In this document: piece after piece, positions 8,644-28,913 of the stretch
Numbering within the stretch: position 1 is the stretch's first letter
How the letters are laid out: the number at the start of each line of letters is the position of its first letter
Assembly: GCA_029821235.1 (NCBI GenBank)
Contig: JALGTT010000001.1
Location: 1-32,443 of the forward strand
Origin: Candidatus Hebobacteria bacterium
GTDB lineage: Bacteria; Armatimonadota; Hebobacteria; Hebobacterales; Hebobacteraceae
DNA length: 32,443 nt
Direction: 5' to 3'
Translations under genes and position numbers: made by a program
Notes under the pieces: model-generated
Seen by the model: only the letters and a program-made list of their open reading frames with translations
What the model was told of the DNA's origin: nothing
Database searches by the model: none

Positions 8644-8735
8644 TCATCCTTGCTTCCCGAATCTCGGCCGCCACGCCGGACGGACCGGCGGAGTTCGTTC
8701 CGGAGAGTCTGTGCGTCAGAGTTCAAACGGCCTGA

Positions 8736-8761
8736 GGGAGGCGGACAAAGGTCCGCCTCCC
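8736..8761 (-). terminator. hairpin immediately downstream of the first pilin gene (possible attenuator or mRNA stabiliser)
   Basis: Perfect 11-bp stem (GGGAGGCGGAC / GTCCGCCTCCC) with a 4-nt loop, 15 nt after the pilin stop at 8776. There is no clear U-tract. Confidence 0.4.
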
Positions 8762-8775
8762 CCGGAGTCGCTTCC

Positions 8776-9228: not shown

Positions 9229-9306
9229 CTTCTTTCACCTCCTTCCGGGTATTGTCTGGTGTTGACTACTGCCTCCGGCGGAGACTCCGCCGGCGATTGC
9301 CTCGCG

Positions 9307-10539: not shown

Positions 10540-10548
10540 GGCTTGCCC

Positions 10549-12893: not shown

Positions 12894-13247
12894 GTGGCAG
12901 CAGGCGGCTATTTGGATATCGTAGTGAAGAGCGCGGCGGGCGGATTGCTGATCGCGGTCATCCTGCTGCTGGCGCGCGGCCGCCACTACGTCATCAGCGG
13001 CCTGCTGGTCTCCGTTCCCGCGGTTTCCCTCTACACCTGGTGGTGCATCAATGCGGAGCACGGCCCCGTCCACCTTCGGGAGGCGGTGCGGGCCGCCATG
13101 TGGAGCGCCATTCCCTGGGTCGCCTACCTGGCGGTGGTGTACGCGGGCGCGGGCCGGCTGCCCATCTGGCTCAATCTCACCTTCGGCGTCCTCACCTGGT
13201 TCGTGGTCGCCTTCGGGTTCCTGGTGCTGCTCCGGGGCGGCTCCTAG
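12894..13247 (+). CDS. small four-helix membrane protein, GlpM-like
   Basis: 117 aa with a GTG start preceded by GAGGAGGG. The pattern of hydrophobic helices (LLARGRHYVISGLLVSVPAVSLY...WSAIPWVAYLAVVY) resembles the GlpM family as I recall it from memory. Confidence 0.5.
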   Translation: MAAGGYLDIVVKSAAGGLLIAVILLLARGRHYVISGLLVSVPAVSLYTWWCINAEHGPVHLREAVRAAMWSAIPWVAYLAVVYAGAGRLPIWLNLTFGVLTWFVVAFGFLVLLRGGS

Positions 13248-14396: not shown

Positions 14397-14680
14397 CCGG
14401 CCGTCGCACCTTGGGGAAGGACCTCCTGGCGAACACGCCCTGCCTGGCGTTTCACGGTCCCCTGAGCCCGCTCGCGCGGAATATCGCGAGTTCCCGCGAA
14501 TCTCCCGCCGGACAGCCCCTTTGAGGTGCCTGATTGGGAGGGGAGGGTGCACCCTGCGAAAATTGCTATCCGCCGGCGATGGCGATTCCTGGCGCATCCT
14601 GCGCCCGTTTGCCCCTGCCGCCCCTCCCGCACCGCACTCTCTTCCCGCCGGGGGGAAGGAAAAACCCCGATGCTGTCCAA

Positions 14681-14709
14681 TTGACATCACAAGTACTTCG
14701 TGATAATTT
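14681..14709 (+). promoter_or_regulatory. sigma70-type promoter of the hydrogenase operon
   Basis: TTGACA (14681-14686), a 17-nt spacer, then TAATTT (14704-14709) preceded by a TG (extended -10). It sits in a locally AT-rich patch about 245 nt upstream of the first gene. Confidence 0.55.
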
Positions 14710-14955
14710 TAACAAGCCGGGTAGTGATACTGTGAACAGCAGCACGAAGTCCGCATAGAGGAACACCAGTTGCGCCTGAGGCCCGGCCATTGGTGAAGAC
14801 GTGACAACGGTTGTGCTCCTCACATGTTGAGTCGGCGCATCCGCGCGGCAGTCTCGTGTCGGGGCGGGCGGAAACGACGCCTTGGCCGGCGGGGCACTGA
14901 GCGTGATGAGGGGTTGGCGTAGGCGATAGGCTAATGGAAGGGAGGATGCCGCGTC

Positions 14956-16899
14956 TTGGCTGAGATAGCTACCATCTGTCCCTACTGCGGTTGTGGTTGC
15001 GGCCTCTACCTGCACGTGGTCAACAGTCGCGTGGTCGGCACCGCGCCGATGCGAGTCCACCCCGTCTCCCAGGGGCGCCTCTGCCTCAAGGGGTGGCACG
15101 CACACGAGTTGTCCGACAGCCCCGACCGGCTCACCCGCCCGCTGGTGCGCCGCGGAGGCGAACTCCACGAGGCCTCCTGGGAGGAGGCGGTGAGCGAGGT
15201 GGTGCGCGGCCTGCAGGGGGTCGTGGAGACGGCGGGGCCGCAGGCGGTGGGAGTGCTGGGGAGCGCGCGCTGCTCGAACGAGGACAACTACCTGCTGGCG
15301 CGGTTCGCCCGCGCGGTGATCGGGACCTCAAACCTGGACTCCAGCCTGGCCGCCTATTCCCTGCCGGAGAGAATCGCGGAGGTCGGCGACGCGCAAATCG
15401 CCGATCTCGATGACAGCGACCTCATCATTCTGGTGGGAGTGGAGTTGGGGGAGGAGGAGCCCGCGGTGGGAGCGCACGTCTACCGCGCGCTCCAGCGGGG
15501 AACCAGGCTCATCACCGCCTCCGTGCGCCAACATTCCCTCGCCCACTTGGCGCAGCTCCATCTGCCCGTGCGGCCGGGCGGGGAAGCCGCGGCTCTGGGA
15601 AGCCTCCTCCACGAACTGGTGGTGGAGCGGAAACTCGCCGGCGACGCGGACGTCTCCGACCTCACCGCCGCCCTCGCCGACCTGAAGCCGGCCGGGTCGG
15701 AGGCGAAGACGGGCCTCGCCGCGGCCGCGGTGCGCGAGGCGGCCGACCTGTACCAGGCGGCCGAAAAAGTGGTATTGGTCTTCTCCAGCGCGCTGGCCTC
15801 CTCTCCGGAGGGCACGCGTGCGCTCTCGGTATTGCGCGCGTTCCGCGCGCTCGGCGCGGGCCCGCGGGTGGCCCTGCTGGGCCTGCTGGGGCGGTGCAAC
15901 CTCTACGGCTGCTGGGACATGGGGGTGAGGCACGGATTCCTGCCCGGCGCGCCCACCGGCGACATGGCTGCTGCAGGGCGTCTGAAGGGCATCTGGGGCG
16001 ATTTCAACAGTGAAGCGGGTCTTCCGGCCTGGGGCATGATGGACCAATGCCAGGCCCTGTACGTGATGGGGGACGACCCCAGCCGCAATCTCCCGGACTG
16101 GGCGGCGCGGCGGGAGAAGTTGGAGAGCATGAGGCTCCTGGTGGTGCAGGACCTGTTCATGAGCCCCCTTGCCGAACTCGCACACGTGGTGCTGCCCGCC
16201 GCCTCCTTCGCCGAGAAAGACGGCACCGTGACCAACCTGGAGGGCCGCGTGCAACTCGTGCGGGCCGCCGTGGCGTCCCCCGGCGAGGCAAGGGAGGACT
16301 GGCGCATCATCGCCGAACTGAGCCGGGCCTTCGGCAAGGCCCTCTCCTACCAAACCGCGGCCGACATATTCGCGGAGATCGCCCAGGCGGTTCCCGCCTA
16401 CGCGGGGCTCTCCCACGACGGGCTGAAGGCCCCGGGAGGCGGGCAGACATCCCGGCCCGGCGCGGCGAAGGCGGACGAAGGGGCGGCCGCCGCCCTGCGC
16501 GGCGCGGAGGGAGCGGTGGAGGCCGACGAGCAGTTCCCCCTGGTCCTGGTGGCCGACGCCACCCTGGGGCCATGGGCGGAAGAAGTCAGCGTCTCTCACA
16601 TGCCGGTGGCGGGGCGGGAGTTCACGGTGATGAGCAAGGACTACCCGGACGGGATGCTCATCCTGAACCCCGCGGACGGAAGAAAGAACGACCTGCGCCC
16701 GGGCCGCGCCGCGGAGGTCGCTTCTGCCAATGGGGCGGGGCGCATGCAGGTGAAATTCAGCGAGGACGTGCCGGAGGGAGTGGCGGTAACCCCCTACCAC
16801 CACGCCGCCCGGCACCGCATCATGAACATCGTCACCGAGCCGGACACGGGAAGGCCGCTCTTCGTTCCCACTCCGGTGTCGGTGGGAGTTGGCAAGTGA
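14956..16899 (+). CDS. formate dehydrogenase alpha-like molybdopterin oxidoreductase family protein lacking the Cys/Sec Mo ligand
   Basis: 647 aa. TTG start with GGAAGGGAGGA upstream. N-terminal [4Fe-4S] motif CPYCGCGC...CLKGW. Collinear with FdhF through RFARAVIGTSNLD, and has a C-terminal molybdopterin-dinucleotide-binding-type domain. The segment where FdhF has CARVUHGPSV reads SSLAAYSLPERI. Confidence 0.85.
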   Translation: MAEIATICPYCGCGCGLYLHVVNSRVVGTAPMRVHPVSQGRLCLKGWHAHELSDSPDRLTRPLVRRGGELHEASWEEAVSEVVRGLQGVVETAGPQAVGVLGSARCSNEDNYLLARFARAVIGTSNLDSSLAAYSLPERIAEVGDAQIADLDDSDLIILVGVELGEEEPAVGAHVYRALQRGTRLITASVRQHSLAHLAQLHLPVRPGGEAAALGSLLHELVVERKLAGDADVSDLTAALADLKPAGSEAKTGLAAAAVREAADLYQAAEKVVLVFSSALASSPEGTRALSVLRAFRALGAGPRVALLGLLGRCNLYGCWDMGVRHGFLPGAPTGDMAAAGRLKGIWGDFNSEAGLPAWGMMDQCQALYVMGDDPSRNLPDWAARREKLESMRLLVVQDLFMSPLAELAHVVLPAASFAEKDGTVTNLEGRVQLVRAAVASPGEAREDWRIIAELSRAFGKALSYQTAADIFAEIAQAVPAYAGLSHDGLKAPGGGQTSRPGAAKADEGAAAALRGAEGAVEADEQFPLVLVADATLGPWAEEVSVSHMPVAGREFTVMSKDYPDGMLILNPADGRKNDLRPGRAAEVASANGAGRMQVKFSEDVPEGVAVTPYHHAARHRIMNIVTEPDTGRPLFVPTPVSVGVGK

Positions 16900-16927
16900 A
16901 GGGGCCAAGGGGTAGGGAGGATTGCCG

Positions 16928-17959
16928 ATGAGTTCTTACTTTCTGCCGCGGGACCGAGTGGACGAATTGGTCGCCCGCCTCCTTCAGTCCGCGGAGGTGA
17001 TCGCGCCCAAGCGGGTGGAGACGGGAGACGTCTTCTACAGCCCCGTCTCTTCGCCGGCCGAGGTGGCTTGGGACTACAAGACCGCCGTGGAGCCGCTCAA
17101 GCGGTTCCTGTTCCCCCAGCGGGAGCCCATCCTTCAGTTCTCCAGGGAAGAAGGGAAGCTCAAGGTGGAGGCGGTGTTGGAGGGCAAGGAACGGATCTTC
17201 CTCGGCGTGAGAGGATGTGACGTCACCGGCGTCGCCGTGCTGGACGCCATGTTCGGGGGTGAGATCGAGGATCCGTACTACCTGGCCCAGCGGCAGCGGG
17301 CGACCTTCATCGCGCTCGCCTGCCTGGAGGCGGACGAACACTGCTTCTGCGTGTGCGGGGACGCGGGGCCCTTCCTCAAGAACGGCTACGACCAGCAGTG
17401 GATCCCCCTCGCGGAGGGCATGTTGATCGAGGTGGGCTCGGAGAAGGGACAGGCCCTCGCCGACGCGCACCAGGACCTGCTCTCCCCGGCCGAGCCGGAG
17501 CAGGTGGCCGAGAAACTGCAACTGGCGAAGAAGGCGGAGGAGAGTTTCGGCGAGTTCCGCTCCTACATCGCGGCGGCGATGCGCCGGCTCACCATGGCCG
17601 AGACGCCGGACGAGGTGTGGGAAAAACTCGCCGACAACTGCGTCGAGTGCGGCGGATGCACCTTCCTGTGTCCCACCTGCTCCTGCTTCACCGTCACCAG
17701 CCGCGAGGAGGGCGACGGCGGAATGTTAGAGCGCCAATGGGACGCCTGCCTGTATCCCTGCTACGCGCGGGAGGCGAGCGGGCACAATCCCCGGGGCGAG
17801 CACCCGCAGCGGCTGCGCGCCCGCTTCTTCCACAAGTTGAGCCACCAATGGGCGCAGCGCAACGGAAGGCATGCGTGTGTGGGATGCGGCCGGTGTGTCG
17901 TGGGGTGCCAGGCCTGGGCCCACATGTCGGCCGCCACTGAAGCCATTCGGCGAGGTTGA
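16928..17959 (+). CDS. multi-[4Fe-4S] protein, sulfhydrogenase beta (HydB) / AsrA-like
   Basis: 343 aa counted from the ATG at 16928, which has GGAGG 7 nt upstream. Two ferredoxin motifs (CVECGGCTFLCP and CVGCGRCVVGCQ) plus the extra Cys cluster CLEADEHCFCVCGD. The size matches HydB/AsrA. Confidence 0.78.
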   Translation: MSSYFLPRDRVDELVARLLQSAEVIAPKRVETGDVFYSPVSSPAEVAWDYKTAVEPLKRFLFPQREPILQFSREEGKLKVEAVLEGKERIFLGVRGCDVTGVAVLDAMFGGEIEDPYYLAQRQRATFIALACLEADEHCFCVCGDAGPFLKNGYDQQWIPLAEGMLIEVGSEKGQALADAHQDLLSPAEPEQVAEKLQLAKKAEESFGEFRSYIAAAMRRLTMAETPDEVWEKLADNCVECGGCTFLCPTCSCFTVTSREEGDGGMLERQWDACLYPCYAREASGHNPRGEHPQRLRARFFHKLSHQWAQRNGRHACVGCGRCVVGCQAWAHMSAATEAIRRG

Positions 17960-17964
17960 GCAAG

Positions 17965-18795
17965 ATGAGTAACCCCTATTTGCCGGACATAGCCACCATC
18001 CAGCGGGTCAAGCAGGAGACCTACGACACCACGACCTTCACCCTCAAGTTCGATGACCCGGGAGCCTGGGAGAAGTTCCGCTTCCAGCCCGGCCAGTTCG
18101 TCGAGATCTCCGTGTTCGGGGCCGGCGAGGCCCCCTTCTGCATCTCCTCCAGCGCCCACGGCCGCGAGGACTTCGACATCACCGTCCGCCGCCTGGGCCG
18201 GGTGACCCAGGCGCTGCACGACATGAGCGAGGGGGACCAGGTGGGCGTGCGGGGGCCGCTGGGCAACTCCTTCCCCCTCGACGAGGTGGCGGGAAAGCAC
18301 ATCCTGTTCGTGGGCGGCGGACTGGGGCTGGCGCCGCTCCGCCCGCAGATCCTGGACGTCTACCGGCAACGCGACAAGTTCCAGTCGGTAACCGTGCTCT
18401 ACGGGGCCCGCACCCCGGACGACCTGATCTACCGGGACGAACTGGAGCAGTGGCAGAACCTGGAGGGGATGCGCTGCCTGCTCACGGTGGACGTGGGCAA
18501 CGACCAATGGACCGGCAATGTGGGCGTGGTGGGCTCCCTCCTGTCGGAGGTCAAGTTCGACGTCAGCCAGGCCGTCGTCTTCGTGTGCGGCCCGCCGATC
18601 ATGATCAGATTCGTGGTCCGGGACCTGGTGGCGATGGGCTTCGGAGAGGACGAGATCATCAGCACCCTGGAGAGGCACATGCGCTGTGGAATCGGCAAGT
18701 GCAACCACTGCATCCACGGCGACAAGTACATCTGCCTGGATGGGCCGGTGTTCACTTTCCGCCAGATGAAGGCGATGATGGAGTTGGAGCCGTGA
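17965..18795 (+). CDS. FAD/NAD(P)H-binding [2Fe-2S] oxidoreductase, sulfhydrogenase gamma (HydG) / AsrB / PyrK-like
   Basis: 276 aa. Ferredoxin-reductase-type fold with GGGLGLAP nucleotide motif and C-terminal MRCGIGKCNHC...ICLDGPVF [2Fe-2S] motif. An alternative TTG start at 17956 overlaps the upstream stop. Confidence 0.85.
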   Translation: MSNPYLPDIATIQRVKQETYDTTTFTLKFDDPGAWEKFRFQPGQFVEISVFGAGEAPFCISSSAHGREDFDITVRRLGRVTQALHDMSEGDQVGVRGPLGNSFPLDEVAGKHILFVGGGLGLAPLRPQILDVYRQRDKFQSVTVLYGARTPDDLIYRDELEQWQNLEGMRCLLTVDVGNDQWTGNVGVVGSLLSEVKFDVSQAVVFVCGPPIMIRFVVRDLVAMGFGEDEIISTLERHMRCGIGKCNHCIHGDKYICLDGPVFTFRQMKAMMELEP

Positions 18796-19286
18796 TCTCC
18801 GGAGAAGCGGTGCCGGAGGCGCTCGCGGAGTGGCTGCGCCGGGATACGCTGATCCTGTGCGTGGGCAACCGCTGGCTCGGGGATGACGCGGCCGGGCCCC
18901 TGGTCGCCGACGGTGTGGCGGGCGCGGTGGACTGCGGGGACGCCCCCGAGCGGTTCCTCGACCTGGCCGGCTCCCCGGAGGTGGCGCAGGTGCTGGTGGT
19001 GGACGCGGTGGACATCGGGGGCGAGCCGGGCGAGATCGTGTTCTGCGGCCGCGAGGACCTGACCGAGCGGTTCGGCACCACCCATGATGCGGGGTTGGCG
19101 GTGCTCGCCCGCTTCCTGTCCGAGGCCCACGGCAAGGAAATGCGCGTGCTGGGGATCCAGCCCGCGCGCACGGGGGTGGGGACGGAGGTCAGCGAAGCGG
19201 TGCGCGGCGCAGTGGGCCGCGTCGCCGCCTGGCTGGCGCGGGCACAACAGCGAGAACAGGTGGAGACAGCATGGACCCAGTCGTGA
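18792..19286 (+). CDS. hycI: hydrogenase maturation endopeptidase (HycI/HyaD family)
   Basis: 164 aa. The GTG start overlaps the upstream TGA. Conserved metal-ligand contexts GNRWLGDDAAG, VVDAVDIGGEPG and GTTHDAG. Confidence 0.8.
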   Translation: MISGEAVPEALAEWLRRDTLILCVGNRWLGDDAAGPLVADGVAGAVDCGDAPERFLDLAGSPEVAQVLVVDAVDIGGEPGEIVFCGREDLTERFGTTHDAGLAVLARFLSEAHGKEMRVLGIQPARTGVGTEVSEAVRGAVGRVAAWLARAQQREQVETAWTQS

Positions 19287-20728
19287 TGACACTGCTGGTG
19301 GTTCCTTTTGCCGGCGCCCTGCTATGCGGCGTGCTGTCGCGAGGGGCGAAGGCGGCGGCCGCGCTGGTGGCCTTGGTGGTGATGGCGCTGGCGATCATCA
19401 CCGTCTGGCAGGCCTGGCCTCTGTTCCCCGATGGTTGGAACACCACCTTCGGCCAGCTTTCCTGGATGCCGGGGGGCCTGGGCTCCATCCAACTCTTCGG
19501 CGCCCTGGTGGACCCGCTCAGTTCCCTGATGCTGTTGCTGGTCACCGTGGTGGGGTTCGTGGTGGTGCTCTATTCCACCGGCTACCTCACCTCCCGCAAC
19601 GTCGAGCACGCCTACCGGGAGGGCGACAACCGCTACTACTTCTGGCTCCTCTTCTTCCTCGGCTCCATGGTGGGGGTGGCGGTGTCGCCCAATCTCCTCC
19701 AGATGTTCTTGTTCTGGGAAATGACCACCATCTGCTCCTGGGCCCTCATCTCCCATACCCACACCGGAGTCGCCCAGCGGGCCGGCTTCAAGGCCCTGGT
19801 CATCACCCACATCGGCGGGCTCGGCTTCCTGGTCGCCCTTGCCTTCCTGCTGGTGTTCGCGCAGAGTTTCGAGTTCACCGCCCTCGGCAAGCTGGGCGGG
19901 GGCATGAAGACCGCCGCCTTCCTCCTGTTGCTGGCGGCGGCCTGGGCGAAGTCCGCCCAGGTCCCCTTCCACACCTGGCTGCCCGACGCCATGGAAGCCC
20001 CCACCCCCATCAGCGCCTATCTCCACGCGGCGGCGATGGTGAAGGCGGGGGTGTTCCTGGTCGCCCGCCTCATCCAGGCGAGTTGGGAGATGCCCTCCCT
20101 GTTCGGCGCCGTGCTGCTGGCGGGGGCGCTCGTCACCATTCTGATGGCGGTGATCAACTACTTCCGCCAGGACGACCTCAAGCGGCTGCTCGCCTACTCG
20201 ACCATCGCCCACCTCGGCTACGTGATGGTGGGGTGTGCGCTCGGGGTATACGGCTCCTGGATGGGATTCCAGGGCGGGGTGCTCCACATCCTCTGCCACG
20301 GGGTGGCGAAGGGCACCCTCTTTCTGTGTGCGGGTGCGCTCGCCTACGGCGCGGGCACGCGGAGCATCAGCAAACTGCAGGGCATGGGGCGAAGGATGCC
20401 CCTGGTGGGGGCCGCCTTCATGGTGGGAGCCCTCGCCGTCACGGGCATCCCGCCTCTCGCCACCTTCTGGAGCAAACTCTACATCTTCGCCGGAGCGCTG
20501 GACGTGCGCGCGGGTGGAGTGCTCCTCGCCGTGCTGGCGGTGGAGAGCGTGGTCGCCTTCTCCTGGTTCATCTACGTGGGGCACCGCATCTTCCTGGGCG
20601 AGCCCTCCGAGGAGGCGGAGACCACCCCGCTACCGGCGGCGATGAGCGTCTCCCTGGTGATCGGAATGTTGCTGTGTGTGCTCGCCCCCGTCGTCGGCGT
20701 GCCGCTGGTGAGAATGATTCTGCCCTGA
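19271..20728 (+). CDS. hyfD: antiporter-like membrane subunit (NuoM/N, HyfD-like)
   Basis: 485 aa polytopic protein with the WLPDAMEAPTPISAYLHAAAMVKAGVFL proton-pump motif. Size is close to E. coli HyfD. Confidence 0.82.
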   Translation: MDPVVMTLLVVPFAGALLCGVLSRGAKAAAALVALVVMALAIITVWQAWPLFPDGWNTTFGQLSWMPGGLGSIQLFGALVDPLSSLMLLLVTVVGFVVVLYSTGYLTSRNVEHAYREGDNRYYFWLLFFLGSMVGVAVSPNLLQMFLFWEMTTICSWALISHTHTGVAQRAGFKALVITHIGGLGFLVALAFLLVFAQSFEFTALGKLGGGMKTAAFLLLLAAAWAKSAQVPFHTWLPDAMEAPTPISAYLHAAAMVKAGVFLVARLIQASWEMPSLFGAVLLAGALVTILMAVINYFRQDDLKRLLAYSTIAHLGYVMVGCALGVYGSWMGFQGGVLHILCHGVAKGTLFLCAGALAYGAGTRSISKLQGMGRRMPLVGAAFMVGALAVTGIPPLATFWSKLYIFAGALDVRAGGVLLAVLAVESVVAFSWFIYVGHRIFLGEPSEEAETTPLPAAMSVSLVIGMLLCVLAPVVGVPLVRMILP

Positions 20729-20758
20729 CAGGGGATTCGGCCCTATCTGCGAGGTGAC

Positions 20759-22849
20759 ATGATGAATGCAGCACAACTTGTACTGGCCGGTTGGGGACTG
20801 CTGATCTGTGGCGCCGCGGCATGCGCCGTCGTCTCCGCGCGGCGCAACCTGGTGGGGCCGCTGGCCTTCCTGTTCGTGGTCGGCTCCTCCGTGCTGGTGC
20901 TGCCGGCCGCCCTCTCCGTGCTGGTGCAGAACCGGGCCGCGGAGACGGGGGCTCTGCTCGCGCTCCCCGGCGTGCAGGCCTCCCTCGCCTTCCGGGTGGA
21001 TCAACTCAGCGCGCTCTTCCTGCTCATCACCGCGGTGATCGCCCCGCTGGCCACGCTCTACTCCATCCCCTACATGCTCAAATACCGGAACCAGGGCCTG
21101 CTGAGGTACTATCCGCTGTTCCTGCTCTTCTTCGCCGGCCTCATCGGCGTGGTGTGCGCGGCCGACTGGCTCTTCTTCCTGGTGTTCTGGGAGTTCATGA
21201 CCGTCTGCTCCTACTTCCTGGTGATCTTCACCAAGGAGGACCGGACGGCGGCGCGGGCGGGGCTCAAGTACATCGTGATGACCCACGGCGCCACCGCCCT
21301 CATGCTGATCGCGGCGATCGTGACCTGGAAGACGGCGCAGCCTCATTCCTTCAGCTTCGAAGCGGCCAAAGCGACCATGGCGCAGCTCGCGGCGACCAGG
21401 CCCGTCCTCCTGCATGTGCTGCTGGCGCTGTGGTTCGTGGGGTTCGCCACCAAGGCAGGGGTGCTCCCCCTCGGGGACTGGCTGCCCGACGCCTACCCGG
21501 CCGCCCCCAGCGGGGCCGCCGCGGTGTTCGGCGGCATGATGTCGAAGTTCGGCATCTACGGCCTGCTCCGGGTCTTCCTGGATATGGTTCCTGCCTGCGA
21601 GTTCTCCACCGTGTGGGGGATCGTGATTGCGGTGGCCGGGGCCAGCTCCATCTTCCTCGGCACCCTGAGCGCCCTCGCCCAGGACGATTCCAAGCGCCTC
21701 ATGTCCTTCCACGTGATCGGGCAGATCGGCTACATGCTGCTGGCCATCGGCGCCGGCATCTACCTGTTGCCGGTGAACGGCGCGCTGGCCGCGCTGGCGA
21801 TCATGGCGGGGGTGTTCCACCTGGTCAACAATGTGTGCTACAAGACCCTGTTGTTCTTCACCGCCGGCTCCCTCTCGTTCCGCGCCGGGGAAACCAACCT
21901 GAACCGGCTCTCGGGCATGTGGACGGTGATGCCCGTCACCGGGGTGGCCGCGCTGATCGGGTCCCTCTCCATCGCCGGCGTCCCCCCGTTCAACGGCTTC
22001 GCCAGCAAGTGGATGATCTACCACGCCACCATCCTGGGAGTGCCGGGGATGCCGTTGTTCCTCCTGCTGGGGATCCTCGCCCTCTTCGTATCCCTGGTCA
22101 CCCTCGCCTCCTTCCTCAAGTTCCTCGGCGGGGCCTTCATGGGCCCCACCGCGCTTCGCGAAGAGGAGGCGGAGAAGGGCGACGTGCCCTTCGCCATGCA
22201 GTTCCCCCAGATGTTCCTCGCCGCCCTCTGCATCGCCTTCGGGCTGGTGCCGATGCTCGCCCTGGCCGGCATCCATCGGGCGGTGGGCGCGGTGCTGCCG
22301 GTGCAGTCCGTCCCCTCGCTGTCCAGCCTGGTGGGCAACTCCTGGGCCGGGCTCCAGTTGAGCGCCTTCGGGGGGGAGGCGACTGGGGTCTGGTATCCGG
22401 TGGTGGTGCTAGGGGCGCTCGCCGTGGGAATGGCCTTTGCCTACTGGGTGTTCAGGCTGGGCGCCGCCCCGCGCCGGGCCGTGGACATGTGGCAGTGCGG
22501 CGCGTTGGTGGACGGCGCGCTGGCTCGCTACCTGGTGGTGGAGCCGAAACACGAGCCGGCCACCGCCCAGTTCGAGGCCCGCTTCCAGGCCCACGGACTC
22601 TACTCCTGTTTCAAGGTGGCCTTTCGCTCCGTCTACCCGTCGGTGCCGCTGCCCCATGCCGGCTATCCGACGCGGTTCATGAAGATATTCGATGTCGACG
22701 CCTGGCTCTTCGGTCCTCTCGTCCGGTTGGGGAACCGGCTGACCGGAGCCTTGAGCCGCACCCACTCCGGGGTCCCCCAGATGTATCTCATCTGGCAGCT
22801 GGTGGGCCTGGTGGCCGTGGTCGTCCTGTTGGCCGTGTGGGCCAATTAG
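20759..22849 (+). CDS. hyfB: antiporter-like membrane subunit (NuoL, HyfB/HycC-like)
   Basis: 696 aa. DWLPDAYPAAPSGAAAVFGGMMSKFGIYGLLRV motif, with the long C-terminal extension characteristic of HycC/HyfB. Confidence 0.85.
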   Translation: MMNAAQLVLAGWGLLICGAAACAVVSARRNLVGPLAFLFVVGSSVLVLPAALSVLVQNRAAETGALLALPGVQASLAFRVDQLSALFLLITAVIAPLATLYSIPYMLKYRNQGLLRYYPLFLLFFAGLIGVVCAADWLFFLVFWEFMTVCSYFLVIFTKEDRTAARAGLKYIVMTHGATALMLIAAIVTWKTAQPHSFSFEAAKATMAQLAATRPVLLHVLLALWFVGFATKAGVLPLGDWLPDAYPAAPSGAAAVFGGMMSKFGIYGLLRVFLDMVPACEFSTVWGIVIAVAGASSIFLGTLSALAQDDSKRLMSFHVIGQIGYMLLAIGAGIYLLPVNGALAALAIMAGVFHLVNNVCYKTLLFFTAGSLSFRAGETNLNRLSGMWTVMPVTGVAALIGSLSIAGVPPFNGFASKWMIYHATILGVPGMPLFLLLGILALFVSLVTLASFLKFLGGAFMGPTALREEEAEKGDVPFAMQFPQMFLAALCIAFGLVPMLALAGIHRAVGAVLPVQSVPSLSSLVGNSWAGLQLSAFGGEATGVWYPVVVLGALAVGMAFAYWVFRLGAAPRRAVDMWQCGALVDGALARYLVVEPKHEPATAQFEARFQAHGLYSCFKVAFRSVYPSVPLPHAGYPTRFMKIFDVDAWLFGPLVRLGNRLTGALSRTHSGVPQMYLIWQLVGLVAVVVLLAVWAN

Positions 22850-22872
22850 GGTGAGGGGAAAGGGAGAGTTCC

Positions 22873-24573
22873 ATGACGAGTGTTGAGCTGATTGGCAAAC
22901 TGCGGGAGAAGTTCGGGGCCGCCATCCAAGACGTCTGCGAACTTACCCCCAGCAAGGTGCGAGTGGAGGTGGCGCCTGCCTCCGTGGTGCCGGTCTGCGA
23001 GGCGCTGTACCGGGACCTCGGCGCGCGCTTCCTCATCACCGCCGGCATCGATTCCCGCGCCGTGCGGGGCTGCTTCGACGTGGATCACATCTTCTCACTC
23101 GACCCCGACAAGATGTTCGTGATCGTGCGGGCGAGCGTCCCGCCGGAGAGGGCGACGTTGGACTCCATCACTCCGCGGGTTCCGGCCGCCTTCTGGGCGG
23201 AGAGGGAGCTCTACGACGTGCTCGGCGTGAAGGCCGAGGGGCATCCCGACCCGCGCCGCCTGATCATGCCGGACGACTGGCCGGAGGGGCTGTTCCCGCT
23301 CCGCAAGGATGTGAAGTACGGCGACTGGCCGGCGGTGGGAGGCGAAAACGCCGATGCCTCCTACCCGTGGAAACCCGCCCCGGAGGGCACCTCCACGGTG
23401 GTCGTCGGCCCCTTCTTCCCGGTGCTGGAGGAGCCCGCGCAACTCCGGCTCTATGTTGACGGCGAACGGGTGGTGGACTGCGACTACCGCGGCTTCTACA
23501 GCCACCGCGGGATCGAGAAGATGGGCGACAGCGCCCTCACCTACAACGAGATCCCCTTCGTCGCGGAGCGCATCTGCGGCATCTGCGGGTTCATCCACTC
23601 CTCCTGCTACTGCGAGACCGCGGAGGAGGCGATGGGGATCCGCGCCCCCCGCCGGGCCCGCTACATCCGCTCCCTGATGCTGGAGGTGGAGCGGATCCAT
23701 TCCCACCTGCTGTGGCTGGGGATCGCCGGCCACATCATCGGGTTCGACACCGTGCTGATGCAGGCGTGGAGAGTCCGCGAGCCCATCATGTGGCTGTGCG
23801 AGAAGATCACCGGGAACCGCAAGACCTATGGCATGAACCTGGTCGGCGGAGTGCGGAGAGACATCCCGAAGGAAGTCCAGCCCGAACTGCTGGAGGTGGT
23901 GGACAAGATCGAGAAGGAAACGGTGGCGATCGTCAACGCGGTGATCGGCGACACCGTCCTCAAGGCGAGGCTGAGCGGCGTCGGCATGCTCCCGGAGGAG
24001 AAGGCCAAGGAGCTGGCCGTGGTGGGGCCCACCGTCCGGGGGTCCAATCTCCCCCTCGACGCGCGGGTGGACCACCCCTATGCCGCCTACGACGAGATTC
24101 CCCCCAAGGTCATCACCCACCCGGACTGCGACAACTGGGCGCGGGTGGTGGTGAGGCTGGAGGAGACCATCGAGTCCATCCGGTGGATCAGGGAGGGCCT
24201 CAAGCAGATGCCGGACGGACCGATCATGGCCTCCGACATTCCCGAGGACATCCCGCCCGAGCAGTGGGGCGTGTTCGTCGTGGAGGCCCCCAGGGGCGAG
24301 GCGATCCACTATGTGGTAACCGGCGGCGACAACCGCCCCGCGCGCTGGCGGGTGCGGGCGCCCACCTATCAGAACCTTCAGGCGCTGCCCTACCTGATCG
24401 AGCAGGAAACCATCGCCGACGTGCCCATCACGCTGGGCAGCATGGACCCGTGTTTCTCCTGCACCGAGCGCACCGAGATCATCAACGTGCGCTCCGGGGA
24501 AAGCAAAGTGCTGGACCAGCAGGAGTTACTCCGGCTCTCCCGCGAAGCCACCGAGCGGCTGCGGGGCCGGTGA
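22873..24573 (+). CDS. hyfG: group 4 [NiFe]-hydrogenase large subunit, NuoC-NuoD fusion (HycE/HyfG-like)
   Basis: 566 aa. N-terminal 30-kDa (NuoC) domain. N-terminal Ni-Fe ligand motif ERICGICGFIHS and C-terminal motif DPCFSCTER, followed by a 33-aa tail of the kind removed by HycI. Confidence 0.93.
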   Translation: MTSVELIGKLREKFGAAIQDVCELTPSKVRVEVAPASVVPVCEALYRDLGARFLITAGIDSRAVRGCFDVDHIFSLDPDKMFVIVRASVPPERATLDSITPRVPAAFWAERELYDVLGVKAEGHPDPRRLIMPDDWPEGLFPLRKDVKYGDWPAVGGENADASYPWKPAPEGTSTVVVGPFFPVLEEPAQLRLYVDGERVVDCDYRGFYSHRGIEKMGDSALTYNEIPFVAERICGICGFIHSSCYCETAEEAMGIRAPRRARYIRSLMLEVERIHSHLLWLGIAGHIIGFDTVLMQAWRVREPIMWLCEKITGNRKTYGMNLVGGVRRDIPKEVQPELLEVVDKIEKETVAIVNAVIGDTVLKARLSGVGMLPEEKAKELAVVGPTVRGSNLPLDARVDHPYAAYDEIPPKVITHPDCDNWARVVVRLEETIESIRWIREGLKQMPDGPIMASDIPEDIPPEQWGVFVVEAPRGEAIHYVVTGGDNRPARWRVRAPTYQNLQALPYLIEQETIADVPITLGSMDPCFSCTERTEIINVRSGESKVLDQQELLRLSREATERLRGR

Positions 24574-24586
24574 GGAGGCAGGGACG

Positions 24587-25496
24587 GTGAACGTAACCGC
24601 GCAAATGTTGTCAGGGATACCCGGGGCGATACTCGCCGTGGTCGTGTTCGTCGGGCTCGCGCCCCTGGCCGAGGGGCTGCTGAGGAAGCTCAAGGCGATC
24701 GTCCACTCCCGCCAGGGCCCGCCCATCATCCAGCCCTACCTCGATCTCGCGAAACTGCTGATCAAAGAGGACCTCGCCCCCTGCACCAACTGGATCTGGC
24801 GGATGGCCCCCGCCCTCTGCCTGGGCGGCACCATCGTGCTCGCCCTCTTCACTCCGCTCGGCGTACGGCCCGCCTTCGGCTTCAGCGGCGATATCCTGGT
24901 CTTCATCTACCTGGCGGCCATCCCGTCCATCGCCATCATCCTCGGCGCCTTCGCCTCCGGCAACCCCTACGCCTATGTGGGCGGGAGCCGCGAGATGATG
25001 GTGATGCTCAGCGTGGAGCCGGTGATGTCCATCGCCCTGCTGGTGGCCGCCATCAAGGCCCAGTCCCTCACCTTTGCCGGCATCCTGGAGAGATCCGCCG
25101 TCGAGCCCTCCATCTCCATGGGGGTCGCCGGGCTCGCCTTCCTGCTCGCCCTGCAGGCCCAGGTCGGCAAACTCCCCTTCGACATGCCGGAGGCCGAGCA
25201 GGAGATCATGGAGGGCCCCTTCATCGAGCGCAGCGGACCGGGGATGGCGCTCTTCCGGTGGGCGATGCACGCGCGGCTCATGATCTTCACCGCCCTCCTG
25301 GTCAGCATCTTCATCCCCTGGCCGCACGTCGCCAACGCGGGCCTCTCCATGCTGCTCACCCTGGCCAAGATGGCGGTGGTGCTCGCCTTGGTCGGGGTGG
25401 TGGACGTGGTCAACCCGCGGCTCCGCATCGACCAATCCATGGCCTACTACGCCCGCATCGGTGGGCGCGTTGATCTTCGCCATTGTGGGCGCCTGA
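24587..25496 (+). CDS. hyfC: NuoH-like membrane subunit (HycD/HyfC-like), apparent 1-nt frameshift near the 3' end
   Basis: GTG start with GAGGAGG 6 nt upstream. HycD-like sequence runs through NPRLRIDQSMAYYARIG (about nt 25460). Read literally, the frame then continues as Arg-rich junk to 25825, across the next gene. The +1 frame from 25461 instead gives VGALIFAIVGA-stop at 25494-25496. The end coordinate assumes that shift. Confidence 0.78.
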
Positions 25497-25511
25497 GGAA
25501 GGACCGACCCG

Positions 25512-25979
25512 ATGATCATCAGCAAACTGAAAGAGGCGATTATCTGCTTCAAGGCGGGCAGGGTCACGCTGCCCTATCCCTTCAAACCGCACGACCCGGC
25601 GGAGAACTTCCGCGGCCGCGTGACCGTGGATGCCGAGAAGTGCATCGGGTGCGCCGGGTGTGCGGAGGTGTGCCCCTCCCGCTGCATCGTGGTCACCGAT
25701 CCGTCTCCCGACAAGCGGGTCCTCGAGTTCTTCCTCGAGCGCTGCACCTACTGCGCGCGCTGCGCAGAGGTCTGCCCCGAGGACGCCGTCACCGCCACCC
25801 AGGAATTCGAGACCGCCACCAATGACACGCAGGACATGCACATCAAGGTGGAGGTCTTCATGAGCACCTGCCGCCGGTGCGGACGCTGCTACGAGCCGCC
25901 CACCCCGCTGGACCGGCCCATGGAGACGGGAATGCGGGAGGCGACGGACGGAAACGGAAGCGGAAACGGGGAAGGCTGA
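25512..25979 (+). CDS. hyfH: 2x[4Fe-4S] ferredoxin subunit (NuoI, HycF/HyfH-like)
   Basis: 155 aa. Motifs CIGCAGCAEVCP and CTYCARCAEVCP, plus a downstream CRRCGRC as in HycF. Confidence 0.88.
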   Translation: MIISKLKEAIICFKAGRVTLPYPFKPHDPAENFRGRVTVDAEKCIGCAGCAEVCPSRCIVVTDPSPDKRVLEFFLERCTYCARCAEVCPEDAVTATQEFETATNDTQDMHIKVEVFMSTCRRCGRCYEPPTPLDRPMETGMREATDGNGSGNGEG

Positions 25980-26641
25980 TGCTGAACGCGAAACTGATCG
26001 AAACCCTCAGTCTCATCATGATCATCACCTCGCTGGTGGCGGTGGAGACCCACAACCTCAAGCGGGCCGCGGCCGCCTACTGCGTGCAGGCCCTGCTGGT
26101 GTGCGGCCTCATCCTCGCCTTTGCCGCCGCCAACCCGGCCCTCTACACGTGGGCCGCGGTGGCCCTGGTGACCAAGGCGATCGCCACCCCGTGGCTGCTG
26201 CTCCACTATGTGGGCAAGACGGGGGTGAGAGAGGCGAAAGCGATCATCGGATTCGGACCCTCCGTGCTGATCGCCTCCCTCCTGCTGATCACCTCCTACA
26301 CCCTCACCCATCGCTACGTGCACTTCCTGGCCCCCACCGCAGAGGCCGCGCAGGGGGTCTTCCGGACCAATCTCGCGGTCAGCATGACGGTGTTCGCGCT
26401 GGGGCTGTACGCCATTCTCTCCCGGCGGGACGCCATCAAGACCGTGATCGGATTGTGTTTGCTGGAAAATGCCATCCACCTCAGCCTGGTCAGCCTCGCC
26501 CCCCACATGCGGGAGACCGCGTTGGTGGGCATCGCCACCGAGGTGGTCATCACCGTTGCCTTGCTGCTCTACGTGATCGCCGGGATCAAGGAGCAGGTGG
26601 GAACCACGGACACCTTCGAACTCTCGGAGTTACACTGGTAG
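25979..26641 (+). CDS. hyfE: HyfE-like small membrane subunit
   Basis: 220 aa polytopic protein. Its ATG overlaps the upstream TGA (TGATG). Size and position match hydrogenase-4 subunit E. The longer ORF starting at 25877 overlaps hyfH and was rejected. Confidence 0.72.
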   Translation: MLNAKLIETLSLIMIITSLVAVETHNLKRAAAAYCVQALLVCGLILAFAAANPALYTWAAVALVTKAIATPWLLLHYVGKTGVREAKAIIGFGPSVLIASLLLITSYTLTHRYVHFLAPTAEAAQGVFRTNLAVSMTVFALGLYAILSRRDAIKTVIGLCLLENAIHLSLVSLAPHMRETALVGIATEVVITVALLLYVIAGIKEQVGTTDTFELSELHW

Positions 26642-26656
26642 AGGAGGGGCGCGCGG

Positions 26657-28270
26657 ATGCCCTTGCACAATGAAGTCGCTTCAGTCTTGCCGCTCGCGCT
26701 GTGTCTCATTCCCGCGGCGCTGGCGCTCGTCACCTATCCTCTGACCCGCGCCGCGCGGGCCCTGGGGCCTGCCCTCAACCTGCTGGGCAGCGCGGTCGCC
26801 ACCGCGCTCGCCGCGGCATTAATGGCCCACACCATGAGGGGCGACGTGCTGGTGGCCCTGGGCCGGGAATTCCGCGCCGATGCGCTCTCCGCCGTCCTGG
26901 TCCTCATCATCAGTTTCATCAGCCTCGCCGCCTCCATCTACGCCATCTCCTACATGCGCTTGGAGCCGCTGCTGGGCCGGGTGGCGCACGAGGAGGGAGA
27001 GGAGCGGGCCGAGCGTCGCCTCGCCACCTTCTACGCCCTCTGGCAGGCCTTCCTCGCCACCATGCTGTGGGCGTGCCTCACCAACAACATCATCGTCCTC
27101 TACGTCTCCGTCGAGGCGAGCACCATCGCCTCCGGCCTGCTGGTCGCCTTCTACTGGGACCGCCGGGCGCTGGAGGCGGCCTACAAATACCTGATGCTGC
27201 TCACCGTGGGCATCGCCTTCGCACTCCTCGGGTGCGTGTTGCTGTACGCCTCCGCCGCACCTCACCTGGCCGACAAGACCGGGCCGGCCGCCATGCTCAT
27301 CAGCGACCTGCCGGCGGCCGCAGCCGCCATCCCCCGCAGCATGGCGTTGCTCATCATGGCCTGCTTCATCGTCGGCTTCGGCACCAAGGCGGGGATCGCC
27401 CCCTTCCACCCCTGGCTGCCGGATGCCCACGCCGAGGCCCCCGGTCCGGTCAGCGCCCTCCTCTCCGGGGTGATGATCAAGATGGCGATCTACGCCCTCG
27501 TCCGCACCCTCGGCGTCTTCTTCCCGATCGCCGCCTACCACCCGGTGTCTGTGTTCTTCATCGGGCTGGCGGCCTTCACCATGCTCCTGGGGGGAATAAT
27601 GTGCCTCGCCCAGGACGACCTGAAGCGGATGCTCGCCTATTCTTCGGTCAGCCAGATGGGCTACATCGCCGCCGGCCTGGGCATCGTCGGGCTGGGCTTC
27701 GGCCGCGAACTGGGATACCTGGCGGGCTACGGCGCCATCTTCCACATTCTCAACCACGCCCTCTCCAAGGCGCTTCTCTTCCTGGTGGTCGGCGCCGTGA
27801 TCTACGTCACCGCCGGCCGTCGCATCAGCCAACTGCACGGGCTCGGGCGGCGGATGCCCGCCACCGCCATCTGCTTCTTCATCGCCGCCCTCGCCATCTC
27901 CGGCGTGCCGCCCTTCAACGGCTTCTGGAGCAAACTCACCATCTACTTCGCGGCGGCCGAGGCGCGGCTGTGGTGGGCGTTCGGCATCGCCCTCGCCACC
28001 AGCCTGCTCACCCTCATCGCCTTCGTGCGCGCCGGCTTCCGGGTCTTCTGGAGCGAGGGCGATTACCCGGAGCCGGAGCCCGCCCGCGAGAACGGGGAGC
28101 AACAGGCCCTCTCCGATGCGGCGAAGGACCCGCTGGAGGGAGATGCGCCGGTGGCTATGCTGATACCGATGGTGGTCCTCGCGGTGCTCTGCGTGGTGAT
28201 CGGGGTGTTCCCCAACCTCGCCTACCCGATCATCGATCCGGCCGCGCGGGCTCTCGCCGCTATCTTTTGA
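26657..28270 (+). CDS. hyfF: antiporter-like membrane subunit (NuoM/N, HyfF-like)
   Basis: 537 aa. PWLPDAHAEAPGPVSALLSGVMIKMAIYALVR motif, with GAGGAGG upstream of the ATG. Confidence 0.85.
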   Translation: MPLHNEVASVLPLALCLIPAALALVTYPLTRAARALGPALNLLGSAVATALAAALMAHTMRGDVLVALGREFRADALSAVLVLIISFISLAASIYAISYMRLEPLLGRVAHEEGEERAERRLATFYALWQAFLATMLWACLTNNIIVLYVSVEASTIASGLLVAFYWDRRALEAAYKYLMLLTVGIAFALLGCVLLYASAAPHLADKTGPAAMLISDLPAAAAAIPRSMALLIMACFIVGFGTKAGIAPFHPWLPDAHAEAPGPVSALLSGVMIKMAIYALVRTLGVFFPIAAYHPVSVFFIGLAAFTMLLGGIMCLAQDDLKRMLAYSSVSQMGYIAAGLGIVGLGFGRELGYLAGYGAIFHILNHALSKALLFLVVGAVIYVTAGRRISQLHGLGRRMPATAICFFIAALAISGVPPFNGFWSKLTIYFAAAEARLWWAFGIALATSLLTLIAFVRAGFRVFWSEGDYPEPEPARENGEQQALSDAAKDPLEGDAPVAMLIPMVVLAVLCVVIGVFPNLAYPIIDPAARALAAIF

Positions 28271-28315
28271 GTGAGTCGTTAGGCGGGCCCCTCCCGCCGC
28301 CAAGTGAGGAAGACG

Positions 28316-28843
28316 ATGGCAATAAGTGATGCGCTGAAGAAACTCTTTCCGAAATCCCTCTGGGTCTACCACGTCAACGTGGGCGCCTGCAACGGGTGCG
28401 ATATCGAGGTGATCAACGTCCTCACCCCGTACTACGACGCGGAGCGCTTCGGCATCAAGTTGGTGAGCTCCCCCCGCCACGCGGACGTCCTGCTCGTGTG
28501 CGGCCCCGTGACCCGCCAGGTGCTGCCCTCCGTCAAGCGCGTGTACGAGGCCACGCCCAGCCCGAAACTGGTCTTCGCCATCGGCTCCTGCGCCTGCGGC
28601 GGAGGCATCTGGCACGATTCCTACAACATCCTCGGCGGGGCCGACAAGGCGCTGCCGGTGGACTACTACATCCCCGGCTGCCCGCCCCGGCCGGAGGCGA
28701 TCCTCTACGGGGTGGCCGTCGCCCTGGGGCTCGCCCCCAAGAAGGCCGCGCCGGTCCACACCAAGCAGAAGTTCCTCGAGATGCTGGAGAAGGGCGAGGT
28801 CCCCGGGCCCCAGCTCGTCGCTCCGCCCGGGGATTCGGAGTAA
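28316..28843 (+). CDS. hyfI: group 4 [NiFe]-hydrogenase small subunit (NuoB, HycG/HyfI-like)
   Basis: 175 aa counted from the ATG at 28316, which has GAGGA 5 nt upstream. The proximal-cluster cysteines are in GACNGCD, GSCACGGG and IPGCPPRPE. Confidence 0.92.
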   Translation: MAISDALKKLFPKSLWVYHVNVGACNGCDIEVINVLTPYYDAERFGIKLVSSPRHADVLLVCGPVTRQVLPSVKRVYEATPSPKLVFAIGSCACGGGIWHDSYNILGGADKALPVDYYIPGCPPRPEAILYGVAVALGLAPKKAAPVHTKQKFLEMLEKGEVPGPQLVAPPGDSE

Positions 28844-28862
28844 GGTCTGCGTCGTCCGGCGG

Positions 28863-28888
28863 ACGCCCTCCGCGCAGGCGGAGGGCGT
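28863..28888 (+). terminator. terminator-like hairpin ending the hydrogenase operon
   Basis: Perfect 11-bp stem (ACGCCCTCCGC / GCGGAGGGCGT) with a GCAG loop, 20 nt after the hyfI-like stop. Only a short T run (TTT) follows. Confidence 0.5.
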
Positions 28889-28913
28889 TTCCGCGTCGAA
28901 TCCTCCCTCCACC

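Follow-up and report, generated by a model that had tools for sequence, protein, structure and literature searches.

The 32,443-nt stretch of 'Candidatus Hebobacteria' DNA analysed here (contig JALGTT010000001.1 of assembly GCA_029821235.1, positions 1-32,443; hereafter the window) carries a twelve-gene operon. With somewhat better than even confidence, we read it as encoding a single group 4 [NiFe]-hydrogenase that would sit in the membrane, translocate ions and have nicotinamide adenine dinucleotide or its phosphate, NAD(P)(H), and not formate, as its partner on the cytoplasmic side; its formate dehydrogenase-like subunit would be an inert scaffold. An earlier note on this DNA had proposed an NAD(P)H-linked, ion-translocating hydrogenase, and this is still the most economical reading now that a degenerate FdhA is found tied to sulfhydrogenase-type beta and gamma subunits and to a group 4 hydrogenase. 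Judged by its genes, the operon is a new member, of the Cys type, in a kind for which in silico descriptions exist, and does not constitute a new kind. The window has ~67% G+C, and in the list of its open reading frames (ORFs) all twelve genes lie on the + strand between 14956 and 28843, with neighbours 13-45 nt apart or with overlapping stop and start codons. The tight one-strand arrangement is thus as the earlier note had described it, down to the codon overlaps at 18792-18795 (GTGA) and 25977-25981 (TGATG), which agree with the ORF coordinates. Profile searches against Pfam and NCBIfam, together with sequence matches in the PDB, uphold its list of genes and supply an identity for gene 4, which it had left unnamed and which is a HycI-type maturation protease:

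14956-16899, + strand: gene 1, FdhA-like molybdopterin-fold protein, 647 amino acids (aa) (Pfam/NCBIfam, PDB alignments)
16922-17959, + strand: gene 2, Fe-S protein homologous to sulfhydrogenase subunit beta (HydB/AsrA-like), 345 aa (Fer4_22 domain); alternative ATG start at 16928
17956-18795, + strand: gene 3, homologue of sulfhydrogenase subunit gamma (HydG/AsrB/PyrK-like), 279 aa (FAD_binding_6, NAD_binding_1, DHODB_Fe-S_bind); alternative ATG start at 17965
18792-19286, + strand: gene 4, HycI-type [NiFe]-hydrogenase maturation endopeptidase, 164 aa (PF01750, TIGR00072)
19271-20728, + strand: gene 5, HyfD-like, antiporter-like membrane subunit, 485 aa (NF005097, Proton_antipo_M)
20759-22849, + strand: gene 6, HyfB/NuoL-like, antiporter-like subunit with a C-terminal extension, 696 aa (NF005086)
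22873-24573, + strand: gene 7, NuoC-NuoD fusion, [NiFe] large subunit (HycE/HyfG-like), 566 aa (Complex1_30kDa, Complex1_49kDa, NiFeSe_Hases)
24587-25496, + strand: gene 8, NuoH/HycD/HyfC-like membrane subunit, frameshifted in the assembly (PF00146)
25512-25979, + strand: gene 9, HycF/HyfH/NuoI-like 2x[4Fe-4S] subunit, 155 aa (Fer4 families)
25979-26641, + strand: gene 10, HyfE-like membrane subunit with a NuoK-like C-terminal half, 220 aa (NF008556, PF00420)
26657-28270, + strand: gene 11, HyfF-like, antiporter-like subunit, 537 aa (Proton_antipo_M, NF005044)
28304-28843, + strand: gene 12, NuoB/HycG-like small subunit, 179 aa (PF01058, NF005012)

The FdhA-like product of gene 1 scores 352 bits against the NCBIfam model of the formate dehydrogenase (FDH) alpha subunit, for which the curated cutoff is 666. 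Aligned with solved FDHs, it has NLDSSLAAYSLPE at the position of NVDHCARL[C/U]HxxT, where U is selenocysteine (Sec), and LLGRCNLYG at the position of LRGQNNVQG; it has therefore lost the Mo/W ligand along with the catalytic His and Arg, which confirms the earlier claim of an FdhA-like protein lacking its Mo ligand. The Sec/Cys-His pair and the Arg are likewise absent from all 16 degenerate-type loci examined. Proteins of this type make up 77 of the 117 full-length sequences among the best 120 database relatives of gene 1, and they split into several subfamilies, each with its own replacement motif. On this comparison, the loss of the FdhA catalytic residues is a trait of the clade and not a local mutation. 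The residue at the Mo-ligand position varies among the degenerate proteins (Y, Q, E, D, T) and is flanked by indels; no variation is seen in the four Cys of the N-terminal [4Fe-4S] cluster, and the gene is full-length in every operon.

The erosion reaches well beyond these residues. In an alignment with 113 active FdhAs, 185 columns reach a conservation of at least 90% among these active proteins. None of the active proteins has fewer than 79% of these positions (median 98%); the degenerate proteins have a median of 53%, and gene 1 has 46%. The losses cluster in HCARL[C/U]H..FGSGAMTNS, DPR, MGITQH, NPLRGQNNVQGAC, GENP, TTGR..H..TG.M.R and FHF, blocks that we take to form the walls of the active site and of the pterin and guanine pockets in Mo/W enzymes with a bis-pyranopterin guanine dinucleotide (bisPGD) cofactor. 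What is kept is the cluster motif, SARCTNEDNY and VVLPAA..EK.GT.TN.ERRVQ, and this VVLPAA..ERRVQ block (query 403-485) is the segment that can still be aligned to the cofactor-free NuoG/75-kDa subunits. Gene 1 has the lowest identity among the subunits, alone or tied with HycI (gene 4), in 11 of 13 locus comparisons, and in L087 and L037 only HycI scores below it; against L002 its identity is 51% where genes 2-10 have 57-85%, and against L085 it is 36% where the other subunits have 42-74%. An AlphaFold2 (AF2) model (predicted local distance difference test score, pLDDT, 88; predicted template-modelling score, pTM, 0.90) retains all four FDH domains and lies closer to the cytoplasmic FDHs and to FdhF in the formate hydrogenlyase (FHL) complex (template-modelling score, TM, 0.87-0.89; FdhF 0.89) than to NuoG (0.70). 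A catalytically degenerate molybdopterin domain comparable to that of NuoG, as the earlier note had envisaged, is thus backed by both the lost residues and the comparative data.

The two genes that follow have fared differently. The best PDB matches of genes 2 and 3 are the beta and gamma subunits of Pyrococcus furiosus SHI (9nez_B, E 1e-47, and 9nez_C, E 4.7e-56, respectively). Because their hidden Markov model (HMM) scores fall under the equivalog cutoffs (gene 2 scores 171.7 bits with the HydB profile, under its cutoff; the AsrA and AsrB profiles give 147 bits against 323 and 211 against 289), we regard them as homologues, not orthologues, of the sulfhydrogenase subunits. Their motifs were compared across several phyla, gene 2 in 13 operons and gene 3 in 12. 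In gene 2, 15 of 17 Cys are invariant; in gene 3, the four Cys of the [2Fe-2S] cluster are invariant, as are GEAPF and GARTP, and GGG[IL]GLxPL is kept in 10 of the 12 operons, with one V in L001 and one A in L037. The invariant GARTP gives a weak hint of NADPH in preference to NADH. A ferredoxin of the HycB/HyfA type is missing from the twelve gene products, and gene 2 takes its place. The input module is therefore not the classical FdhF with HycB/HyfA, as the earlier note had held, and its beta and gamma homologues keep every cofactor motif. Within the operon, it is chiefly this contrast between intact beta/gamma motifs and an eroded gene 1 that points to the flavin, and not the molybdopterin-fold subunit, as the place where electrons are taken up or given off.

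A genome scan seeded on FdhA alone, comprising 80 loci (L005-L084), places this contrast in a wider setting. Four of the five loci with a degenerate FdhA combine it with beta/gamma genes and a group 4 large subunit, and the fifth has just 2.2 kb of downstream sequence; none has beta/gamma genes only or a hydrogenase only. The 75 loci with an active FdhA include none with both, 16 with beta/gamma genes and no hydrogenase, and two with a hydrogenase and no beta/gamma genes. A Fisher test of 4/5 against 0/75, calculated by hand and with short flanks in some of the loci, gives p ~3e-6. Silencing of the FDH site and attachment of the hydrogenase therefore go together. The 16 stand-alone trios (L007, L008, L010, L012, L013, L017, L029, L034, L035, L044, L046, L048, L051, L053, L060 and L071), found in Nitrospirota, Chloroflexota, Methanothrix, Syntrophaceae, Pirellulales and others, have the same three adjacent genes as the window, FdhA followed by HydB-like and HydG-like genes. 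Unlike the window, they have an FdhA with its Cys/Sec-His pair and Arg, and no adjoining hydrogenase. Such trios presumably represent a type of NAD(P)-linked formate dehydrogenase, of which we found no characterised example in the literature.

The hydrogenase-linked architecture, whose spread the earlier note had proposed to gauge by a genome search, recurs with the same gene order in at least 12 independent loci from several phyla. The twelve-gene order is found in the metagenome contigs L001 and L002, a 'Candidatus Hebobacteria' metagenome-assembled genome (MAG; L005), MAG L006, a KSB1 MAG (L037), a closed Gemmatimonadota MAG (CP070815.1, L085), an Acidobacteria contig (L086) and, with one extra gene each, L090 and L091. 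In a closed Armatimonadota MAG (CP070816.1, L087) the locus stops after the NuoH-like gene (11692-13162), and equivalents of HycF, HyfE, HyfF and HycG are not at that locus. The succession of genes 1, 2 and 3, HycI and hydrogenase is kept in all Hyf-type loci. In a Pirellulales MAG (L009, 9625-19086), the degenerate FdhA/beta/gamma trio precedes a compact Hyc-type hydrogenase with one antiporter-like subunit, and HycI was not detected; this input module can thus also be paired with a membrane arm that is not of the Hyf type.

Several of these loci have distinctive surroundings. In L090, the operon lies directly 3' of genes for carbon monoxide dehydrogenase/acetyl-CoA synthase of the Wood-Ljungdahl pathway (1-9560) and has four antiporter-like genes, not three (14654-19703), a context that hints at a role in the H2/NAD(P)H balance of an acetogen-like organism. 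In L091 (14075-14755; 18800-20482), an inserted gene for a multihaem cytochrome c separates the gamma-like gene from hycI. Directly upstream of the operon in L086 (1-2157) is a second, soluble-type [NiFe]-hydrogenase (small and large subunits) with its own HycI-like protease. In both L085 (15779-21093) and L086 (15771-20178), genes for a response regulator and a PilS-like or Cache-domain histidine kinase lie 3' of the operon, and these are possible dedicated regulators that the window lacks.

The remainder of the operon is that of a group 4 [NiFe]-hydrogenase. Gene 7 has both Ni-Fe ligand motifs that the earlier note had reported, RICGICGFIH and DPCFSCTER, and by far its best PDB match is Escherichia coli HycE (7z0s_E, E 2e-133; P. 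furiosus MbhL, 6cfw_L, gives E 7e-75). The 32-residue tail that follows ...CTER is, from its sequence, of the kind that HycI cleaves off. Gene 4 itself scores 85.9 bits with TIGR00072, above the cutoff of 47.45, and 73 bits with the hycI model TIGR00142, below its cutoff of 119.1, and it occupies a position common to the operons of relatives. The operon encodes five membrane subunits. Gene 5 reaches 522.7 bits with NF005097, 'hydrogenase 4 subunit D' (cutoff 430). The top-scoring models for genes 6, 10 and 11 are HyfB, HyfE and HyfF, all under cutoff (NF005086, 361.7 bits, full-length; NF008556, 114.8 bits over positions 2-214 of a 216-position model; NF005044, 297.9 bits), and a NuoL model also matches residues 18-692 of gene 6. 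The matches of gene 9 to NF009053 and NF006076 are likewise under cutoff; gene 12 exceeds its own with NF005012 (146.2 bits against 116) and, with CNGC, GSCAC and PGCPP, has the cysteines of the proximal [4Fe-4S] cluster. Large-subunit CxxC motifs, NuoB-, NuoI- and NuoH-like subunits, antiporter-like subunits, and HycI with a matching C-terminal extension are thus all present.

If the products of the operon act as one complex, gene 3 would pass electrons from NAD(P)H through flavin adenine dinucleotide (FAD) to its [2Fe-2S] cluster. From there they would run over the [4Fe-4S] clusters of gene 2, the two [4Fe-4S] clusters of gene 9 and the proximal [4Fe-4S] cluster of gene 12 to the [NiFe] site of gene 7 as the terminal site, along a path that would be reversible throughout. 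Gene 1 would be an inert descendant of a formate dehydrogenase that has kept its fold and one [4Fe-4S] cluster, serving as a scaffold or as the holder of a side-branch cluster, much as NuoG does in complex I with its molybdopterin-like domain and its cluster N7. Genes 8 and 10 and the antiporter-like genes 5, 6 and 11 would couple the small redox span to the movement of H+ or Na+. At standard conditions, NAD(P)+/NAD(P)H lies at -320 mV and H+/H2 at -414 mV, a span of ~94 mV. On these textbook potentials, H2-driven reduction of NAD(P)+ yields ~18 kJ/mol, or about one translocated ion. The complex might oxidise H2 to form NAD(P)H, conserving about one ion per H2, or release H2 from NAD(P)H, driven by the ion-motive force or by an H2 pressure that is very low. 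Gene content, the intact Ni-Fe and cofactor motifs, the degenerate FdhA site and the strict co-occurrence and synteny across phyla are observed; we infer how the subunits assemble, the order of the clusters, the nucleotide used, the direction of the reaction and its coupling to ions. The analogy with complex I that the earlier note drew appears reasonable, now with comparative evidence behind it. Its alternative of a dual formate/NAD(P)H input finds no support, since the Sec/Cys-His pair, the Arg and most of the blocks of active FdhA are lost across the clade, and formate input is unlikely.

The architecture is not unprecedented, which weakens the novelty that the earlier note had implied. In an in silico survey of group 4 hydrogenases that contain Sec, Takano et al. 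2026 (Front Microbiol, PMC13582414) described a 'Group 4b' in which about half of the cluster-encoded Fdh proteins have no Cys/Sec, in clusters that also hold SHI-beta and SHI-gamma homologues. Their AlphaFold models support one complex, with an Fe-S network that has one end at the Fdh-like protein and others at SHI-gamma and the large subunit. The window has the same list of parts, from large and small subunits, an Fdh-like protein without the Mo-coordinating Cys/Sec and SHI-beta/gamma homologues to HyfE- and HyfC-like, several antiporter-like and ferredoxin subunits, and the phyla of the two sets overlap in Armatimonadota, Acidobacteriota and KSB1. We liken it to their 4b clusters by gene content, while the closest solved large subunit is the 4a protein HycE. 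The window enzyme is of the Cys type (RICGICGF). Its relative L091, with the same operon, reads RICGI*GF, a CXXU-type Sec motif of the kind that Takano et al. describe for their [NiFe]/[NiFeSe] group, and this indirectly ties the family of the window to theirs. Similar, too, is a group 4 hydrogenase region in Saganbacteria RX5A that Matheus Carnevali et al. 2019 (PMC6349859) called 'enigmatic'. There, an unclassifiable molybdopterin oxidoreductase stands with asrA- and asrB-like genes and antiporter-like genes, and the authors left the function of the region open. Compared by description only, it differs from the window in an additional cooF-like gene and in its phylum. Reference operons with the same input genes, which the earlier note had named as grounds for rejecting its idea, thus exist as regards gene content, though not within a characterised subgroup.

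Better-known systems share parts of this plan. The E. coli FHL-1 (Hyc, PDB 7Z0S/7Z0T) and FHL-2 (Hyf) complexes of group 4a have in common with the window HycI and the equivalents of HycG, HycF, HycD, HyfB, HyfD, HyfE and HyfF. Their FdhF, however, is a Sec enzyme where gene 1 lacks the Sec/Cys-His pair and the Arg, their HycB/HyfA ferredoxin is replaced in the window by the SHI-beta-like protein, and the window adds an FAD/NAD(P)H subunit; it thus has the HyfD-, HyfE- and HyfF-type subunits of an FHL and neither a catalytic FdhF nor HycB/HyfA. The scan of flanking ORFs gave pilus genes, a URO-D family, a SpoU methylase, MscS and others, but no hyp, fdhD/E, focA or fhlA/hyfR genes, in keeping with the earlier note's statement that hyp, fdhD/E and formate-channel genes are missing, except that gene 4 is itself a maturation gene. 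With P. furiosus SHI (group 3b, PDB 9NEZ), the window shares beta/gamma homologues and their cluster, FAD and NAD(P) motifs, but SHI is soluble and has group 3 alpha and delta subunits, whereas here the beta/gamma pair accompanies a membrane-bound group 4 enzyme whose large and small subunits are only HycE-like and NuoB-like. Nor is this an AsrABC system, as the operon has no AsrC-like sirohaem gene and its AsrA/AsrB matches are under the equivalog score. Complex I has homologous peripheral and membrane arms, a silent molybdopterin-fold subunit with an N7-type [4Fe-4S] cluster, and a nicotinamide donor such as we propose here. It differs in its diaphorase (NuoEF with flavin mononucleotide, FMN, against an FAD/PyrK-type beta/gamma pair) and in its terminal site (quinone against H+/H2 at [NiFe]); the operon has no NuoE or NuoF homologues, and its NuoD-like subunit retains the Ni-Fe cysteines. 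Three further candidates were set aside. Group 4f/Ehf enzymes in Matheus Carnevali et al. have no Ni-Fe ligands, and the beta/gamma input is missing from the 4f clusters both of that paper and of a second one; the NADP-dependent Fdh3 of Thermococcus onnurineus, with an NfnB-like NAD(P) subunit and an active FdhA, is a different module; and the model given for the group 4b enzyme of Pelotomaculum, a classical formate-driven one, is not informative here.

A number of points weigh against an NAD(P)(H)-linked enzyme with an inert gene 1. The span of ~94 mV sits uneasily with three antiporter-like subunits, a problem that E. coli Hyf shares, and we found no biochemical study of any member in the literature. 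Since the AF2 fold of gene 1 is intact and confidently modelled, the protein may still bind a pterin or other cofactor; in arsenite oxidase and some other Mo-bisPGD enzymes, Mo is not coordinated by any protein residue. The former active-site segment is also well kept within subfamilies (for example SARLEALPGLFDLP and GxSLYDSATLPGLM), which may reflect a residual or a new function of gene 1. Takano et al. see three branches in the modelled network and favour bifurcation or confurcation with a third substrate. In such an enzyme, the Fdh-like subunit would retain a redox cofactor, and H2/H+, NAD(P)H and a further substrate at that subunit would meet in an ion-gradient-coupled reaction. Their complex models with three terminal branches speak for it, as do the presence of a full-length gene 1 with invariant [4Fe-4S] Cys in every operon, its complete FDH fold and the conserved segment just mentioned. 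A Mo-ligand position that is variable and flanked by indels, the disappearance of about half of the positions conserved in active FdhAs, whole blocks included, and the place of gene 1 among the fastest-evolving subunits all argue in the other direction, toward an inert Fdh-like subunit. In addition, no subunit resembles a known bifurcating flavoprotein, and the gamma subunit is of the PyrK/NfnA type, the non-bifurcating partner in Nfn. We consider a three-way reaction unlikely, if still to be taken seriously.

It is also conceivable, though we think it distinctly improbable, that the FdhA-like/beta/gamma trio works on its own as a soluble oxidoreductase and is only co-transcribed with the hydrogenase, which would then be fed by ferredoxin or another carrier, as are Mbh and Ech. 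Stand-alone trios do exist, and Matheus Carnevali et al. guessed at an Mbh-like function for their cluster. All 16 of those trios have an active FdhA, however, and the catalytic residues that are always kept there are never kept in the hydrogenase-linked trios, a pattern hard to explain if the trio were independent; moreover, the operon has no other candidate input subunit, and its gene order is fixed in the Hyf-type loci, with overlapping stop and start codons. A genuine formate hydrogenlyase, or a dual-input enzyme oxidising formate at a non-canonical FdhA-like site, might be suspected from the top family match of gene 1 (Fdh-alpha), its top structural matches (cytoplasmic FDHs and FdhF) and an overall layout like that of FHL-2. 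We give this reading hardly any credence, given that Sec/Cys, His and Arg are absent in gene 1 and the whole clade, that the Fdh-alpha score is far under its cutoff, and that focA, fdhD/E and HycB/HyfA were not found among the ORFs scanned. A further concern, which also counts against our reading, is gene 8. Its ORF reads on to 25825 in a nonsense frame, and the proper C terminus, ...VGALIFAIVGA* with its stop at 25494-25496, is found in the +1 frame. Compared with contig L088 (JGI 3300033149; 98.9% identical), 14 bp, TCGTCTTCGTGGCG, are missing at ~25460/25461, and through this frameshift the protein loses its last transmembrane segment and gains ~120 aa of out-of-frame sequence. Were this a true pseudogene, the complex would be non-functional in this genome. 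We judge that very unlikely, because the gene is intact in L088 (307 aa, with relatives at 301-316 aa), which yet has a truncated HyfD call of its own, because an alignment of both contigs has 62 gap positions over 15.5 kb, as is typical of assembly or sequencing indels, and because every other gene of the operon is intact. The deletion is probably such an indel and not gene decay. The 'complete' Hyf-type set of the earlier note therefore holds for the lineage, though not literally for this assembly.

The operon is flanked by putative control elements:

14681-14716, + strand: promoter-like element TTGACA-N17-TAATTT (or TTGACA-N15-GATAAT) within the conserved block ACTTCGTGATAATTTTAACAAG (sequence, footprint)
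14717-14955, + strand: 5' leader of ~240 nt with conserved blocks, among them the palindrome ACAACGGTTGT, a ribosome-binding site GGGAGGA and a TTG start
28863-28888, + strand: GC-rich hairpin with a perfect 11-bp stem, loop GCAG and then TTT only (sequence)

The TTGACA-N17-TAATTT promoter named in the earlier note is present at 14681-14709. A consensus scan missed it because its -10 hexamer is weak (3/6 match), and its backing comes instead from conservation. In an upstream alignment of the window with L088 (98% identity of the FdhA-like protein), L089 (82%) and L001 (62%), TTGACA and ACTTCGTGATA[A/T]TTT[T/G]AACAAG are invariant down to 62% FdhA identity, and the flanks diverge. The block as a whole is invariant in the window, L088 and L089 and nearly so in L001, and it is restricted to the close clade of the window. 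Conservation of this form is, on sequence grounds, the phylogenetic footprint of a promoter or operator. The search for RNA elements found no Rfam family and no tRNAs. Blocks of the leader, the palindrome among them, are likewise kept in orthologues down to 62% identity, but its predicted fold has no extra stability over shuffled sequences (z +0.81); the alifold of the leader took in three sequences only. The hairpin that the earlier note had placed at the end of the operon is there, with its stem free of mismatches and starting 20 nt 3' of the gene 12 stop codon. It is absent from the output of the terminator scan because its T tail is shorter than 5; it is a plausible terminator.

Around the operon, genes of the URO-D family (uroporphyrinogen decarboxylase/methyltransferase-like) stand on both sides, at 13278-14396 (+) and 30902-32056 (-). 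The upstream copy lies behind a GlpM-like gene and is also found next to the operon, as a conserved feature, in L001 and L088. Farther upstream, at 3579-12252 (-), lies a type IV pilus/type II secretion system-like cluster with a PilM/PilN fusion, a pilin with an N-methylation motif, a PilC-like T2SSF protein and a PilB-like T2SSE protein, and it is syntenic with L001.

Characterised group 4 hydrogenases take their electrons from formate, CO or ferredoxin, and to our knowledge none has been shown to use NAD(P)(H). If the operon does couple H2/NAD(P)H to an ion gradient, it would represent a new energy coupling site in widespread uncultured bacteria, including Armatimonadota, Gemmatimonadota, Acidobacteriota, KSB1 and a Wood-Ljungdahl organism. 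Metagenome annotations that go by Hyf/Hyc and FdhA similarity alone would then predict formate-driven H2 production where it is unlikely to occur. The operon may also be a living analogue of a transitional form between formate hydrogenlyase and complex I, with a nicotinamide input attached and the FDH subunit silenced. Such a transitional form, if real, would bear on the origin of NuoG, and the operon would offer an experimentally reachable model of how complex I gained its silent molybdopterin subunit and its nucleotide-oxidising head.

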